In this document: positions 45,980 through 50,435 of the stretch, one piece after another | How the letters are laid out: every line of letters starts with the position of its first letter | Numbering within the stretch: position 1 is the first letter of the stretch | Origin: Candidatus Bathyarchaeia archaeon | GTDB lineage: Archaea > Thermoproteota > Bathyarchaeia > Bathyarchaeales > Bathycorpusculaceae | Reading direction: 5' to 3' | DNA length: 64,000 nt | Assembly: GCA_038727135.1 (NCBI GenBank) | Contig: JAVYWL010000001.1 | Location: forward strand, 756,021-820,020 | Position numbers and translations under genes: made by a program | The notes under the pieces: generated by a model | What the model was told of the DNA's origin: nothing | The model's input: the letters and a program-made list of their open reading frames with translations, nothing else | Databases searched by the model: none

Positions 45980-45993
45980 GGTTAAATTTTAAG
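45980..45993. repeat. Left target-site duplication GGTTAAATTTTAAG (14 bp)
   Basis: Identical to 50422-50435 and abuts the left TIR. Confidence 0.9.
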
Positions 45994-46063
45994 ACCCAAA
46001 CCCAAACCCAAACACCCTCTCAAAGGGGGGAGAGAGGGACAGACGGACAGACAGAGACAGACA
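45994..46063. repeat. Left terminal inverted repeat (70 bp perfect; imperfect to ~46084)
   Basis: Exact reverse complement of 50348-50417, checked base by base. Confidence 0.97.
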
Positions 46064-46082
46064 GACAAACAAACAGACACAG

Positions 46083-47108
46083 TCACACACAAACAAACCT
46101 AGGCTTCCATTCACGCCTTTCGTTTCTCAGGTATTTGGCTAAAAGATAGGCTTCCTCGTTAATGAGGGTTTCAATTGTTTGGCTTTTCCCCCATCTAATT
46201 CTTGGAACATTAACCTTAGCTTCAAACAATCGGTTAAGCTTTTCAGCTAATTCCCTAGTCTTTTTCTTACCTAAAACTTGTCTTTTCCCTAAACGGTTAG
46301 AGCTGAACCATTCAGTTTTAACCGTGAAATCCTTAGCCGTTAAGGTTTGGCTAAATCCTATTAGGAAATCATCTATGAGATAGCGATATAATTCCATCAT
46401 GTCGCAAACCAAACTTGGCTTGCCAAACTGTTCGCTATGAACAAACCCAAGATAAGGCTCTAAATGAGCATTCAAAACAGCCATGTAAACCCTAAACTTA
46501 AGCATGGTATAAGCCAAATTGAAAGTATTATTCAAACCGTCATAAGCTTTCCATCCCTTACGTTTATCAGCCTTAAAAGGCAACAGCTTAAAGATTTCAT
46601 GATAATAATGCTCTGAAGCCTTACCCTCAATAGGTAAAAGCCTTCTCCTAGCATCCATAAGGCTATTAGAGTTTAAACCCTCAATCCTAGACTTGTAAAA
46701 GGCTAAGTTAAGCTCTTTTAAGCCATGCTTCTTTAAAACCATGTTTTGGCTCTCAATCTTGCTTAAAACTATTGTTTTAGCTATGGTTATACCTTTGCCA
46801 TTATGTAAGGCTTCATATTGAGCTATGCGAGTTTTAACATGGCTATCATCATCAAGGCTTCTGAGAACAGCCACGGGATTACCATTCCTAGTCTTAATAA
46901 TAACGGGAATATCCCAAAAACCACAAGAAGCCAAAACACTAGTGCTAATGAAATTCCCACTTGAAACAATAATCTCGCCTATCTCATTCTCAAATAATGG
47001 AACACGCTGAACATTCCCATCCCTATCTCTAACAACGAAACAACCCTTTTCCATGCCAAGATAATAGCCATTCCCTTCAACATTAATGGTTAAAAACTTA
47101 GCCTTCAT
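46083..47108 (-). CDS. cas1: Cas1-family integrase (casposase-like, no CRISPR association)
   Basis: N-terminal beta domain; catalytic E (IEGKASEHYY), NNTFNLAY, H (LEPYLGFVH), D/E (SLVCDMMELYR); ATG at 47108 (track start 47120). Confidence 0.93.
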   Translation of the reverse strand: MKAKFLTINVEGNGYYLGMEKGCFVVRDRDGNVQRVPLFENEIGEIIVSSGNFISTSVLASCGFWDIPVIIKTRNGNPVAVLRSLDDDSHVKTRIAQYEALHNGKGITIAKTIVLSKIESQNMVLKKHGLKELNLAFYKSRIEGLNSNSLMDARRRLLPIEGKASEHYYHEIFKLLPFKADKRKGWKAYDGLNNTFNLAYTMLKFRVYMAVLNAHLEPYLGFVHSEQFGKPSLVCDMMELYRYLIDDFLIGFSQTLTAKDFTVKTEWFSSNRLGKRQVLGKKKTRELAEKLNRLFEAKVNVPRIRWGKSQTIETLINEEAYLLAKYLRNERREWKPRFVCV

Positions 47109-47670
47109 GAGGATAACCAACCTCTTTTAGTTGTTTCTCCAAAACATCTAAGAATTTCTTCATGTAATCTTCATTTTCCAAACATTTTTTTATGATAAGC
47201 CATTCTGGATACCTTAAGAAATGGCTTCTAAACAGCTCAGAAGCGAAGCCATCTTCAAACCTACCGTATTTTTCAAAGAGAATTTGATGCTTCAAAAAAT
47301 TTAATTCACAGGCTAAAGTATTTAGCAGAATATTTGCTATTTGCTCTTCAACGGGTTTATTTAGAAAAATTTCTTCTAATTCCTTCCATTCCTTAAGCTT
47401 TTTAACTGTTTCATCTAGTTTCTCTCCAATTTTTTCAATTCTTTCAATGTTCGGCTTATAGGTCACGTTTTTGGCTGATTTAATCGTCTTCACTACAAGC
47501 TTGAGTTTTATTAAATGGTTAAGATGCATTAATAGAGTAGGCTCTGGCAATTTAACTCTAAACTTACGATGTAAGATTTCTTTTAAGTCCTTGAATCTTA
47601 ACTCTCCTCTGACTAAAAGAATAGCAAATATCTGAGCACATTTTTCATCCAATTTTGGGACAGGTTTCAT
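47098..47670 (-). CDS. Winged-HTH DNA-binding protein
   Basis: QIFAILLVRGELRFKDLKEIL...EPTLLMHLNHLIKLKLVVK...VTYKPN; 3' end overlaps the cas1 start. Confidence 0.8.
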   Translation of the reverse strand: MKPVPKLDEKCAQIFAILLVRGELRFKDLKEILHRKFRVKLPEPTLLMHLNHLIKLKLVVKTIKSAKNVTYKPNIERIEKIGEKLDETVKKLKEWKELEEIFLNKPVEEQIANILLNTLACELNFLKHQILFEKYGRFEDGFASELFRSHFLRYPEWLIIKKCLENEDYMKKFLDVLEKQLKEVGYPHEG

Positions 47671-47758
47671 CGTTGCACTTCCTTTTACTCATAAATAACT
47701 CAATAAATAAACTATTTATATTTTGCGGAACTATAACTTGTAAACGAGGTGATGTAAA

Positions 47759-48097
47759 ATGGATGAAAGTTTCGAATCTACGTTTAAAGAGAAGGTGGGA
47801 GAGCTAACTAGGTATTTGAGTGTTTCTGAGCTTCCAGACGTAATTAAGGCTAGGCTTGTCAGGTGGGAGTTTAAAGAGGATAAGCGTGGAAACGAATGTT
47901 GTTACATCCATCTAGAAACGGAAAACAAGGAGATAATTGTTCAGAAATTCACACGTAGCACTTGGCTTGAGCTTTATGATAGGCTTAAACGTGTAGGCTT
48001 TGACAGAATCCAAAAAGACTATGTGACATGGGTTAAAAGTAACGTTGGCAGAGCCATCAACCCTAGGCTTCTCCCAATAGTTGAAAAGAGGAAGTGA
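47759..48097 (+). CDS. Hypothetical beta-rich protein, possibly OB-fold ssDNA-binding
   Basis: GAGGTGA SD and TATTTATA box upstream; aromatic/basic beta-strand pattern; fold is inference. Confidence 0.65.
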   Translation: MDESFESTFKEKVGELTRYLSVSELPDVIKARLVRWEFKEDKRGNECCYIHLETENKEIIVQKFTRSTWLELYDRLKRVGFDRIQKDYVTWVKSNVGRAINPRLLPIVEKRK

Positions 48098-48104
48098 AGG
48101 CTTA

Positions 48105-48876: not shown

Positions 48877-49309
48877 TGGCTGTAATCGTGGGAATCAGCG
48901 ACAAACACACGGTTATGGCTGATTTAGACAACATGAGTTTTAAACGTGTTAAAAGCTTGGCTCTTTTAACCATGGAAAAGTTTAGGCTGAATGGCTTTAT
49001 CATTTTGAAGTCTAGCCCTAAGCATTACCATGTGGTTTTCGATAAGCCTATGCGTTATTGGAGTAGCGTGTTAAAGGTTATTGCATGGATGGGTATTGTT
49101 GGAAACAACCGAAATTATGGAAGTGGATGTGTATGCAAGCCATTAAAGGTTACTGCACTTTAAGAGTAAGTCCTAAACCCATCAATTCACATAGTTGTAA
49201 GCCCATTCCAAGGATTGTTTTCCGTCATGGAAGCCAAACCAACATGATTAAGGAATATTTGACTTTTAGAAAACGCATTTTAAGGATTATTAAGCATTTA
49301 GATGTTTAG
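48876..49309 (+). pseudogene. AEP-superfamily primase-polymerase-like gene split by a -1 frameshift near 49105-49110
   Basis: ORF1 has VMADLD (DxD) and LKSSPKHYHVVF (SxxxhH); ORF2 continues PKLWKW...GYCTLRVSPKP; one added base gives ~144 aa. Confidence 0.6.
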
Positions 49310-49348
49310 GATAAAAGTTAGGTTGTTCTATCATATGCACTATTCAAG

Positions 49349-50269
49349 TTAGTATAAAGGCTTAACATAAATTACCACGTAATTCGACTCTATTTTGTAA
49401 ACTTTAACTTCTATCTCAAACTCCCTTATTACAGTCCATGTCGAAATATAATACTCCTTGCTCTGAGAAGTGGTTCGTATTCTTAATTTTGGTTCAACAA
49501 AAGTAGGATGTTCAACCTGTATGTATGTAAACCAATATTGATTTGTTTTGTTAATTAATCCGCTACTGATGTTTACCGCCTTAGTCTCATATAACGTAAT
49601 ATTCACTTTTGTGTAATATAAAGAAGCCATGTAATTATTAACGATAGGCTTAACTAAAATTACAATGTAGTCTGAAATATAATCTGAAGCTACTTTCGAG
49701 ACCTTTATTTCTATCCCAAAATCTCTGTAGGTTTTTCCTTCAATTGGTGTAAAATACGTTCTTTGAAAAGGAGCTGAAACCCATAACGTGTTAAAGTGAT
49801 AGTCAAAAGTATATTCGGTATCCCCAAACTCGATGACTGTTGGGTCAACCTCAAACTCTGATGAATCTCTAAGAGTTAACTGAACGTAATCTTCTGTTGA
49901 AGCGTGATTTTGCATGTTAAAAATGAAAATAGAAGCACACCAAATTAGAAAGCCTATAACTAGAACTACTAAACAAATACCAACAACTTTCTTCGTGGGA
50001 AATGGCTTTTTTACTTCCTTCTTTTCACTTTTGCCTCCTTCCTTAATAAAATGCAGTTCTCCTTCTGATACAAATTTGCCCCTTTTCTCTTCAGCATGGG
50101 CAATAGCCATTTCCTTTTTTGTTTGCCAACTTCCTAAAGGTGTTCTAGGCGGTAAGTTTGGACAGTTGTGGCTTTCTGGAAGCCTATGCTCTAAACAGTA
50201 ATATTTTCCGCAAAATTTGCATTCAAAAGGAAGGTCAACTTCTTTTCCACAATGTTCGCATTGAGGCAT
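49349..50269 (-). CDS. AN1-type zinc finger + TM helix + duplicated beta-rich domain (cargo)
   Basis: CEHC...FECKFCGKYYCLEHRLPESHNC; hydrophobic VVGICLVVLVIGFLIWCASIFIF. Confidence 0.8.
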   Translation of the reverse strand: MPQCEHCGKEVDLPFECKFCGKYYCLEHRLPESHNCPNLPPRTPLGSWQTKKEMAIAHAEEKRGKFVSEGELHFIKEGGKSEKKEVKKPFPTKKVVGICLVVLVIGFLIWCASIFIFNMQNHASTEDYVQLTLRDSSEFEVDPTVIEFGDTEYTFDYHFNTLWVSAPFQRTYFTPIEGKTYRDFGIEIKVSKVASDYISDYIVILVKPIVNNYMASLYYTKVNITLYETKAVNISSGLINKTNQYWFTYIQVEHPTFVEPKLRIRTTSQSKEYYISTWTVIREFEIEVKVYKIESNYVVIYVKPLY

Positions 50270-50347
50270 CCTTCATCAAGATTAATTATGCCTACCATTT
50301 AAAGTAAATTTTGCGGTCTGTCGTCCGTGTTTATTTGTTTGTCTGTG

Positions 50348-50417
50348 TGTCTGTCTCTGTCTGTCCGTCTGTCCCTCTCTCCCCCCTTTGAGAGGGTGTT
50401 TGGGTTTGGGTTTGGGT
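50348..50417. repeat. Right terminal inverted repeat (70 bp perfect), followed by extra TTGG continuing the TTTGGG array
   Basis: Exact reverse complement of 45994-46063. Confidence 0.97.
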
Positions 50418-50421
50418 TTGG

Positions 50422-50435
50422 GGTTAAATTTTAAG
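50422..50435. repeat. Right target-site duplication GGTTAAATTTTAAG
   Basis: Identical to 45980-45993. Confidence 0.9.

Follow-up and report, generated by a model that had tools for sequence, protein, structure and literature searches.

The window analysed here, a 64,000-nucleotide stretch of Bathyarchaeia DNA, contains at positions 45994-50421 a 4,428-bp element that is very probably a casposon-like DNA transposon of a Bathyarchaeia-specific family, with Cas1 acting as its integrase. This reading is based on empty sites in related genomes, a second insertion in genome G001, exact duplications at 16 elements, the universal presence of Cas1 and the lack of a polymerase gene in the members examined. 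It is accepted that the CRISPR adaptation machinery arose from casposons, which have so far been treated as self-synthesising elements, defined by Cas1 together with a family B DNA polymerase (PolB).

Element Boundaries and Evidence of Insertion

The element is delimited by terminal inverted repeats (TIRs) and by a target site duplication (TSD):

45980-45993, no strand: left TSD copy GGTTAAATTTTAAG; exact repeat, present as a single copy at the empty site of genome G003
45994-46075, no strand: left TIR, 82 nt, 98% complementary to 50336-50417; hexamer start, short internal hairpin
50336-50421, no strand: right TIR (50336-50417) with 4 extra terminal bases; boundary fixed by the empty site
50422-50435, no strand: right TSD copy; exact repeat, confirmed by the empty site

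The two TIR arms form the longest inverted repeat within 44000-52500. A first-pass annotation of the window, made from the sequence alone, had described perfect TIRs of 70 bp, and this perfect core was recovered inside the 82-nt arms. A hexamer unit forms both termini, with the left TIR opening in (ACCCAA)n-type units, while the additional 4 bases at the right end (50418-50421) represent a further partial CCCAAA-type unit. The 14-bp direct repeat GGTTAAATTTTAAG, also described earlier, lies directly outside the TIRs and is exact. It has just 2 matches in the 64-kb window, even when one mismatch is allowed, against a chance expectation of 0.09, and two or more matches occurred in none of 100 shuffled sequences. 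GC content is 0.30-0.46 within the element compared with 0.44-0.47 in the flanks, which agrees well with the AT-rich segment of about 4.43 kb noted previously. The insertion site is intergenic, located between the genes for RNA polymerase subunit D (Rpb3/RpoA-like) and proteasome alpha.

An empty allele, proposed at the outset as a check, was sought by comparing the region and its flanks with 40 relatives, and 8 same-genus loci were inspected. In six of these (G003, G001, G005, G010, G007 and G013) the flanks are directly contiguous. Genome G003, the flanks of which are 93-95% identical to those of the window, carries a single exact 14-mer at the site and nothing else when read letter by letter; a single copy with one substitution is found at the empty sites of both G001 and G013. 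The boundaries at 45994 and 50421, together with the 14-bp duplication, are established by the G003 empty site, since it holds one 14-mer. At the other two loci (G009 and G006), the approximately 1.2 kb between the flanks is an ordinary 368-aa host gene and not an element.

Genome G001, empty at the site between the RNA polymerase subunit D and proteasome alpha genes, carries an approximately 90% identical element elsewhere, split between the last part of contig C1 and the first part of C4. Both of its outer junctions, read across the two contig ends, share the 13 bases TTTAAAATCTTAT. This copy therefore stems from another insertion event, independent of that in the window, by an element of the same type. 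The window element is a real mobile element that has recently been inserted.

A hairpin-forming stretch was also observed by eye in each TIR (46012-46033, mirrored in 50378-50399), consisting of CCCTCTC, an 8-base loop and GAGAGGG; it could be a protein-binding site.

Palindromic Target and Tandem Arrays

Exact duplications were measured at 16 elements, including that of the window, once it had been taken into account that BLAST adds the palindromic target to the TIR. The duplications comprise 15 bp in 8 elements, 14 bp in 4 and 13 bp in 4; the search for homologous cas1 genes with both TIRs and TSDs, suggested by the first-pass annotation, was therefore successful. The commonest full duplication, GATTAAAWTTTAATC, is an AT-rich 15-bp near-palindrome around a central base. 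Its core TTAAAWTTTAA is exact in 7 of the 16 duplications, and most of the others are one or two changes off. As the G003 empty site carries the palindrome, this sequence is part of the target rather than of the element. Within the 1.55-Mb host genome the core is found 5 times, two of these being the TSD copies of the window, and 1.17 Mb of cas1-centred loci contain it 63 times.

Several loci display arrays, with 6 sites in 13.4 kb at L044 (7591-20990) and 5 sites in 13.3 kb at L057 (267-13607). In these two, the end of one element is followed by the site and then by the start of another element with different termini, remnants included. Re-use of the palindromic site thus leads to tandem arrays. 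Tandem casposon insertion at one site has been described in Methanosarcina and Nitrosopumilus (available text of PMC6563490), and a short palindromic target for casposons is not mentioned in the casposon texts consulted. A separate observation concerns contig C2 of G001, where at approximately 90.0 kb (L029, 4025-4195) the right end of a family element is followed by the site CTTAAAATTTTAAG, abutting an apparent tRNA gene on the opposite strand as judged by eye. This arrangement recalls the tRNA targets of family 2 casposons.

Cas1 of the Element

46083-47120, minus strand: Cas1 (putative casposase), 345-aa open reading frame (ORF); PF01867 1.1e-44, TIGR00287 9e-52

The true start of Cas1 is likely the ATG at 47108. 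The ORF lacks a C-terminal helix-turn-helix (HTH) domain, and no subtype model scored above its cut-off beside the match to TIGR00287. All 29 of 29 family members keep residues E165, H228, D240 and E243, which, judging from motif order, would correspond to E141, H208, D218 and D221 of the E. coli protein. Among the 8 element ORFs scanned, no family match to a DDE transposase, a tyrosine or serine recombinase, Cas2, Cas4 or a polymerase was obtained, and Cas1 is the sole recognisable recombinase.

The host genome (1.55 Mb in 7 contigs, 94.7% complete) has the window as the last 64 kb of its contig C1. It contains three Cas1 genes, all of the element family; besides that of the window, C3 has one and so does C5, a contig of 6.2 kb. 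No CRISPR array was detected in any of the 7 contigs with a simple custom repeat finder, and no Cas2 match was found at this level of completeness. The first-pass annotation had reported a full-length, catalytic Cas1 as the only recombinase, in the absence of a CRISPR array, cas2, cas4, DDE transposase or tyrosine integrase, and both statements are borne out by these scans.

A Bathyarchaeia Family without a Polymerase Gene

In a large protein collection, 2,180 Cas1 homologues were retrieved at E up to 1e-5; the best 120 of them are all at least 57% identical, and many reside on 2-7-kb contigs. A scan of species-representative genomes yielded 78 related cas1 loci, 74 of which bear Bathyarchaeia labels. 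The element family is large and almost confined to Bathyarchaeia. Family-level Cas1 was found in 8 of 401 Thermoproteota genomes, all but one within the class of the host. Among 300 evenly sampled Halobacteriota genomes and the centre genome G041, the best non-family Cas1 scored 135 bits versus at least 416 bits for family members. The sole family-level match in Halobacteriota, a 967-bp contig in a Methanophagales bin, is probably a binning stray, and neither this contig nor the single Aenigmatarchaeota, Levybacteria and 'uncultured archaeon' labels were used to claim a host range. Nothing related to the Cas1 family turned up in a collection of viral contigs.

Self-comparison revealed that TIRs bracket cas1 in many of the 78 loci, with lengths of 30-305 nt in relatives. 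Element sizes range from 2.8 to 12.6 kb, many being 4-6 kb. The termini are simple repeats of the type (CCCAAA)n, (CCAAC)n, (CT)n, (CTT)n or (CA)n. The two ends of one element often have unequal unit counts, which hints at replication or repair at free ends. In the window the hexamer unit count differs between 45994-46013 and 50398-50421, and likewise between the ends at L039, L040, L044 and L061.

The gene content was compared across 25 elements. Besides that of the window, these comprise contig C5, a 4.6-kb piece of C3 with unmapped ends and 22 relatives of known extent:

Cas1: 25 of 25 elements, the only gene in all
F1, approximately 156-aa protein of unknown function: 20 of 25 elements
F3 (11 elements) or F4 (10 elements), approximately 145-175 aa: 21 of 25 elements
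F2, Zn-ribbon protein: 12 of 25 elements

The largest ORF is 345 aa in the window element and 387 aa across the 25 elements, therefore too short for any PolB; the casposon polymerases used for comparison are about 596 aa long in family 1, and those of family-2-like casposons about 890 aa. A model of family-2-type casposon PolB matched 0 of the 528 ORFs of 250 aa or more that lie no farther than 10 kb from the 78 cas1 genes, while held-out casposon PolBs were recovered by it at 531-1457 bits. The model of family 1 (protein-primed) PolB missed its controls, the PolBs of L113 and L121, and its blank carries no weight because of this failure. Pfam gave no PolB match in the window element or in the C5 and C3 copies. 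The earlier claim that no ORF is large enough for PolB is thus confirmed, and the question then raised, whether close relatives carry one, was answered in the negative for the 25 elements and for the ORFs scanned around the 78 loci. A 596-aa protein-primed PolB (PF03175 9.8e-49) was encountered on a 7.7-kb contig from the family of the host (G471:C92, L113). This contig is devoid of Cas1, shared genes and matching termini, and is probably an unrelated virus or plasmid fragment.

These data bear on the possibility that the element is a deletion derivative of a PolB-encoding casposon of families 1-4, which lost its polymerase and is mobilised in trans. Deleted forms do exist, as demonstrated by a MITE-like (miniature inverted-repeat transposable element) remnant of approximately 695 bp with a cas1 fragment, and the internal-deletion joints in metagenomes and the frameshifted gene of the window copy would also fit. 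Such an origin is nevertheless very unlikely: there is no room for PolB in the 25 relatives, the casposon PolB model was blank where its held-out controls were found, the relatives possess a conserved module of their own, their Cas1 forms one long-stemmed clade, outside families 1 and 2 in the free tree, and the sole protein-primed PolB in the family of the host sits on a contig without Cas1 or any shared gene.

One small member deserves separate description. The 2.8-kb element at G017:C24:11840-14661 (L025 3841-6662; also L037) is from another genus, and its Cas1 is short of approximately 24 residues; it carries a methyltransferase and a ribbon-helix-helix (RHH) gene. Its cas1 is 89% identical in DNA to that of the window, which suggests recent transfer between genera.

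Phylogeny of Cas1

When the family profile was compared with solved structures, the best match was Cas1 of Archaeoglobus fulgidus (4n06, 123 bits), which we take to belong to subtype I-A, followed by another CRISPR Cas1 (78 bits) and the Methanosarcina mazei casposase 6opm (77.7 bits). A quick IQ-TREE analysis was made of 63 rows and 355 columns under LG+C20+F+G4 with SH-aLRT support. The references were 9 family 1 casposases located beside a protein-primed PolB of approximately 596 aa; 13 family-2-like casposases of approximately 400 aa, most of them near an ORF of approximately 550-900 aa, with the PolB match confirmed for some; CRISPR-linked Cas1 with arrays alongside; and the 8 nearest 'I-A-like' genes, at least 2 of which have arrays. 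Among the CRISPR-linked reference ORFs at L144-L156 and L160-L163, arrays adjoin 15 of 19 according to the same repeat finder. The tree covers 16 of the 29 family sequences, 13 having been left out along with references shorter than 280 aa and casposase families 3 and 4. The 307-aa ORFs resembling Cas1-solo group 1 (L157-L159) were omitted as well, being undetected by the Cas1 model.

The 16 Bathyarchaeia Cas1 proteins form one clade (support 100) on a stem of 1.95. In the free tree this clade falls in a knot with CRISPR-linked groups (58). When all transposon Cas1 were forced together, the log-likelihood was 4.24 above that of the free quick tree (approximately unbiased test, p-AU 0.635), with long branches involved. 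On these alignments the family Cas1 is a distinct family, for which a joint clade with casposases is not rejected. The phylogenetic check proposed earlier came out in favour of the first-pass annotation, since the family has its own clade and is not robustly nested in a CRISPR-linked one; in the free tree it stands separate from casposase families 1 and 2. Either the casposases or CRISPR Cas1 may be the sister group of the family on these data, and the relevance to the origin of CRISPR adaptation that had been claimed is accordingly tentative.

Accessory Genes and the Primase-like Module

The other genes of the element are as follows:

47098-47670, minus strand: 190-aa winged-helix-like protein, overlapping the cas1 start; Penicillinase_R winged HTH (wHTH) match 0.0053, below cut-off
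47759-48097, plus strand: 112-aa ORF opening the rightward operon; unmatched in Pfam, NCBIfam and PHROGs
48081-48416, plus strand: 111-aa Zn-ribbon (treble-clef) protein, family F2; DUF2116 8.3e-5, below cut-off
48406-48876, plus strand: 156-aa conserved protein, family F1, overlapping both neighbours; in 20 of 25 elements
48876-49309, plus strand: frameshifted gene of family F3, archaeo-eukaryotic primase (AEP)-like (primase 1D-like); 48876-49163 (95-aa ORF) continues in frame 49085-49309
49349-50269, minus strand: 306-aa cargo protein; zf-AN1 1.8e-12 at the N-terminus, then a hydrophobic segment (by eye)

The position-equivalent genes upstream of cas1 in the C5 and C3 copies have weak HTH_45/TrmB matches, and a variable wHTH gene lies directly upstream of cas1 in most relatives. 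Overlaps connect the Zn-ribbon, F1 and AEP-like genes, which are probably organised as one operon. The F2 protein of the window is 45-51% identical to those of the C5 and C3 copies. F1 belongs to no family in Pfam, NCBIfam or PHROGs and to no cluster above 0.80 in the language-model Atlas, and the 112-aa ORF is a singleton in the clustering of the 25 elements and is not conserved. PHROGs returned no match for F1, F3, F4, the 112-aa ORF or the AN1 protein. Cargo varies among close copies: where the window element has the AN1 zinc finger, G001 has a 213-aa membrane protein instead. Further cargo is represented by the methyltransferase of G017 and by a restriction-modification pair in the host C3 copy, and a 44% identical paralogue of the AN1 cargo is present in the C2 remnant of the host genome.

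The F3 orthologues in the approximately 90% identical copies of G001 and G006 are intact, with 143-144 aa. Most metagenome contigs covering F3 have one more T behind 49114, within a T-run; the depth with the extra T is 127 of 193 in run X1, 22 of 30 in X9, 3.4 of 3.4 in X10 and 8.9 of 30 in X5. Because most contigs carry this T, the frameshifted F3 of the window is a minority variant or an assembly error.

Regarding the function of F3, PF24387 (AEP-like, archaeo-eukaryotic primase 1D-like) was matched by 28 of 64 family members scanned singly, with a best value of 3.5e-7, and no other family was matched by more than one of the 64. Independently, a cluster labelled 'primase 1D family' was returned for F3 by the Atlas, scoring 0.93 and having 187 features in common. 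The F3 profile retrieved 577 representative clusters at E up to 0.001 from a library of 1.84 billion proteins, and among the best 150 of these nearly all are 70-250 aa long. Residues D16 and D18 (DxD) are nearly invariant in the 64 sequences, with a YH motif approximately 35 residues downstream. F3 and F4 are homologous (hhalign probability 85%, E 5.7e-6, 102 columns), and in F4 an arginine replaces the motif histidine. Profile searches of the PDB with the F3 and F4 alignments gave nothing meaningful (best E 1.2 and 0.81, respectively). A reading of the YHVVF motif as that of an HUH rolling-circle Rep was dropped, as no family match was found. F3 and F4 are probably relatives of AEP-like primases. 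This assignment is held with moderate confidence because matches in the window lineage are absent or weak and the histidine is lost in F4. The AEP-like gene of the first-pass annotation is supported at the level of the family, through PF24387 and the Atlas, although the window copy itself is frameshifted and has no Pfam match of its own.

Proposed Mechanism and Weighing of the Evidence

By analogy to solved casposases and Cas1-Cas2, a Cas1 oligomer would attach the two 3' ends of the element to opposite strands of the palindrome, at points offset from each other by 13-15 nt. The palindrome may be read symmetrically by the Cas1 oligomer, by a separate winged-helix protein or by both. The winged-helix protein encoded upstream may recognise the ends or the target, thereby replacing the HTH fused to family 2 casposases. 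The Zn-ribbon, F1 and AEP-like proteins could form a small priming or gap-filling module, which would fill the single-strand gaps that become the duplication; alternatively, it might prime copying of the element by host polymerases. In either case the module would take the place of the PolB of classical casposons. The window copy may rely on sister copies in the same genome because its AEP-like gene is frameshifted.

Several points weigh against the interpretation of the element as a casposon-like transposon with a primase module. The role of Cas1 as transposase is deduced by exclusion and from the duplication length, and F1 and the 112-aa ORF, both without a recognised fold, could conceal another recombinase. 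The best solved relative, 4n06, is a CRISPR-named Cas1 at 123 bits, compared with 77.7 bits for the casposase 6opm, and in the free tree casposase families 1 and 2 group together (96) to the exclusion of the Bathyarchaeia sequences. The winged-helix call is built on sub-threshold matches. With respect to the module, the loss of the histidine in F4 speaks against a conserved AEP active site, as far as can be judged from the alignments; the two halves of the window F3, L106 and the G001 copy have no Pfam match, and the G006 orthologue matches PF24387 at 0.0048, below the 27-bit cut-off.

Some of these points would suit a different explanation, in which Cas1 is cargo or a domesticated remnant of CRISPR adaptation and the element is moved by F1 or the 112-aa ORF. 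It would account for a CRISPR Cas1 as nearest solved relative, for the position of the family among CRISPR-linked groups in the free tree and for two conserved or resident proteins to which no function can be assigned. We regard it as highly improbable, given that Cas1 alone is present in 25 of 25 elements with invariant catalytic residues, that duplications of 13-15 bp fit casposases (15 bp in A. boonei, available text of PMC9939771), that the genome has neither Cas2 nor an array and that the 112-aa ORF is not conserved.

The AEP-like module and the repeat ends also allow the element to be viewed as an integrated linear plasmid or virus-like replicon, primed by the module at its ends, for which Cas1 would just integrate and excise. 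The unequal terminal repeat counts are what slippage or sliding-back would produce if the ends replicate. Many Cas1 genes of the family are found on contigs of 2-7 kb, and the Atlas clusters nearest F3 are labelled largely viral. The depth of the element-unique part in X1, a weak measure, is about one tenth of that of the flank. Set against this, no gene for a capsid, for packaging or for partition was recognised in scans of the element and of the C5 and C3 copies, and the viral contigs searched included no relative. Repeated elements that break assemblies would produce short contigs just as well, and neither a contig with both ends free nor a circular junction was seen. A replicon of this kind is consequently considered improbable, albeit less so than cargo Cas1.

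The casposon-like transposon with Cas1 as integrase accordingly stays the preferred interpretation. It can be extended, in a tentative form that we rate as rather doubtful, to an abundant and largely Bathyarchaeia lineage that never had PolB and instead uses a split primase module (Zn-ribbon, F1 and an AEP core of approximately 145 aa), Cas1 and the winged-helix protein duplicating a 15-bp palindrome and so building arrays. If true, this lineage would be a present-day model of how a transposon turned into a CRISPR array, and the partnership between Cas1 and primase-polymerases (prim-pols) in some CRISPR systems might derive from it.

Comparison with Known Systems

The statements on published systems made below refer to the available portions of the cited texts. 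Casposons are described as cas1-polB islands of four families (Krupovic et al. 2014, 2016, 2017, as covered in PMC9939771 and PMC6563490), and the casposase of A. boonei duplicates 15 bp (PMC9939771). Among the features used to define casposons (Krupovic 2014), the element possesses Cas1 as sole integrase, TIRs and a TSD of approximately 14-15 bp, and is free of nearby CRISPR arrays and other cas genes; a PolB inside the element is missing. Cas2 and an adjacent array, by which a CRISPR adaptation module is recognised, are absent from its genome. With casposons of families 1-4 it shares a Cas1 homologue as sole integrase, TIRs, duplications of 14-15 bp, the absence of an array and Cas2, sequence-specific targets, tandem insertions at one site and a patchy distribution. 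Unlike them, it has an AEP-like, a Zn-ribbon and an unknown gene where casposons have PolB, its family members are smaller (2.8-12.6 kb), and its Cas1 clade is apart from families 1 and 2 in the free tree. Its putative HTH is encoded upstream by a gene of its own and not fused as in family 2, and the target is a short palindrome in intergenic DNA, whereas casposons use the 3' end of tRNA or ef-2 genes.

The closest precedent is that of Salgado et al. 2022 (PMC9755687), in which 'family 5' casposases were proposed from six hot-spring contigs and placed next to subtype I-A Cas1. Five of the six members are without a polymerase, TIRs are present in some, and the authors suggest 'non-self-replicative transposons'. 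The window family resembles family 5 in being archaeal and from hot springs, in lacking a C-terminal HTH, in having kept the catalytic residues, in its TIRs, in the absence of a polymerase from most members and in identities above 50% between members. Moreover, family 5 adjoins subtype I-A Cas1, and the best solved relative of the window family is 4n06. Compared by description, the two are probably the same group. The terms 'TSD', 'primase' and 'Bathyarchae' do not occur in the main text of PMC9755687 as available, which gives no duplication, empty site, target motif, conserved accessory genes or host lineage; the empty site and the second insertion reported here supply evidence of mobility without counterpart in that text. 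The distinct class of Cas1-mobilised elements proposed by the first-pass annotation is therefore retained as regards mobility and a family of its own, but the element class is not wholly new, because a polymerase-less family 5 had already been proposed (PMC9755687).

A coupling of Cas1 to primases is known from CRISPR-associated prim-pols (CAPPs). These enzymes bind Cas1-Cas2, and a role in filling the gaps left by integration has been proposed for them (Zabrady et al. 2021, PMC8211822). A gene of the AEP superfamily, a probable one in the window element, is genetically coupled to Cas1 in both systems. CAPPs are larger, bacterial and encoded in type III CRISPR operons with Cas2, whereas the AEP-like protein of the element family has approximately 145 aa, resides in a transposon and would belong to another AEP family (PF24387). 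As in CRISPR adaptation, where Cas1-Cas2 integrates into a partly palindromic repeat, staggered joining would duplicate a short palindrome, and its re-use builds an array of inserts separated by repeats. Unlike CRISPR adaptation, the inserts are whole kilobase-sized elements and not 30-40-bp spacers, the repeat is 13-15 bp long, and there is no Cas2, no effector and no leader shown.

In the literature searched, subscription journals aside, no description of Bathyarchaeia Cas1 transposons was found. As far as that literature goes, the new points are that mobility is proven, which lineage hosts the family and how large it is, that it has a conserved primase-like module, and that its target is palindromic and gives rise to arrays. 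A family with Cas1, TIRs and a 13-15-bp TSD but without PolB implies that the polymerase is not essential to Cas1 transposition, and a family with a primase-like module widens the range of possible ancestors of CRISPR adaptation. Furthermore, re-use of a palindromic target results in inserts parted by short identical repeats, the architecture postulated in scenarios for the origin of CRISPR, which can be tested directly here. The element is attractive for the biochemistry of site-specific Cas1 integration because it is small, with an integrase of approximately 345 aa and a defined 15-bp site.

Sister Copies, Metagenomes and Additional Observations

The MITE-like remnant of the host genome is located at C1:48734-49428 and consists of CCCAAA-type ends and a 3' fragment of cas1. 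A 60-bp direct repeat of 93% identity was observed at C1:47705-47764 and 49306-49365 (L033), the second copy of which abuts the cas1 fragment of the remnant. Contig C2 holds a solitary right end of a family element together with the AN1 gene paralogue. The sister Cas1 element at C3:88700-96900 (L032) encodes an N6_N4 methylase (7.3e-47) and a 516-aa NucS/EVE-like protein. Approximately 3 kb beyond it lies a Zn-ribbon tyrosine integrase (PF00589 6.8e-21), which may belong to a separate integrated element. No RNA family was matched by Rfam in 45000-51500 at E up to 0.1. The sole tRNA of the window, a tRNA-Thr (TGT) at 60642-60718 on the minus strand, has no relation to the element.

The metagenome search proposed by the first-pass annotation was productive. 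The left junction region is held at least partly by 18 runs from 8 studies, all recorded as hot-spring metagenomes, and contigs from 4 of those runs cover the element; no contig spanning an element junction is among the matches listed. In runs X1, X5 and X9, a joint that connects 45950 with 50469 resembles the empty-site allele, but its shorter side is just 26-27 letters, and joints of this kind often stem from other organisms. In X1 the depth is approximately 22 for the element-unique part versus approximately 230 for the identical flank contig, a ratio that is not a copy number. Further contig joints, at 46008-49118, 47353-49034 and 49180-50334, most of them with short sides, skip 3.1, 1.7 and 1.2 kb, respectively, and represent internally deleted or rearranged variants of the element.

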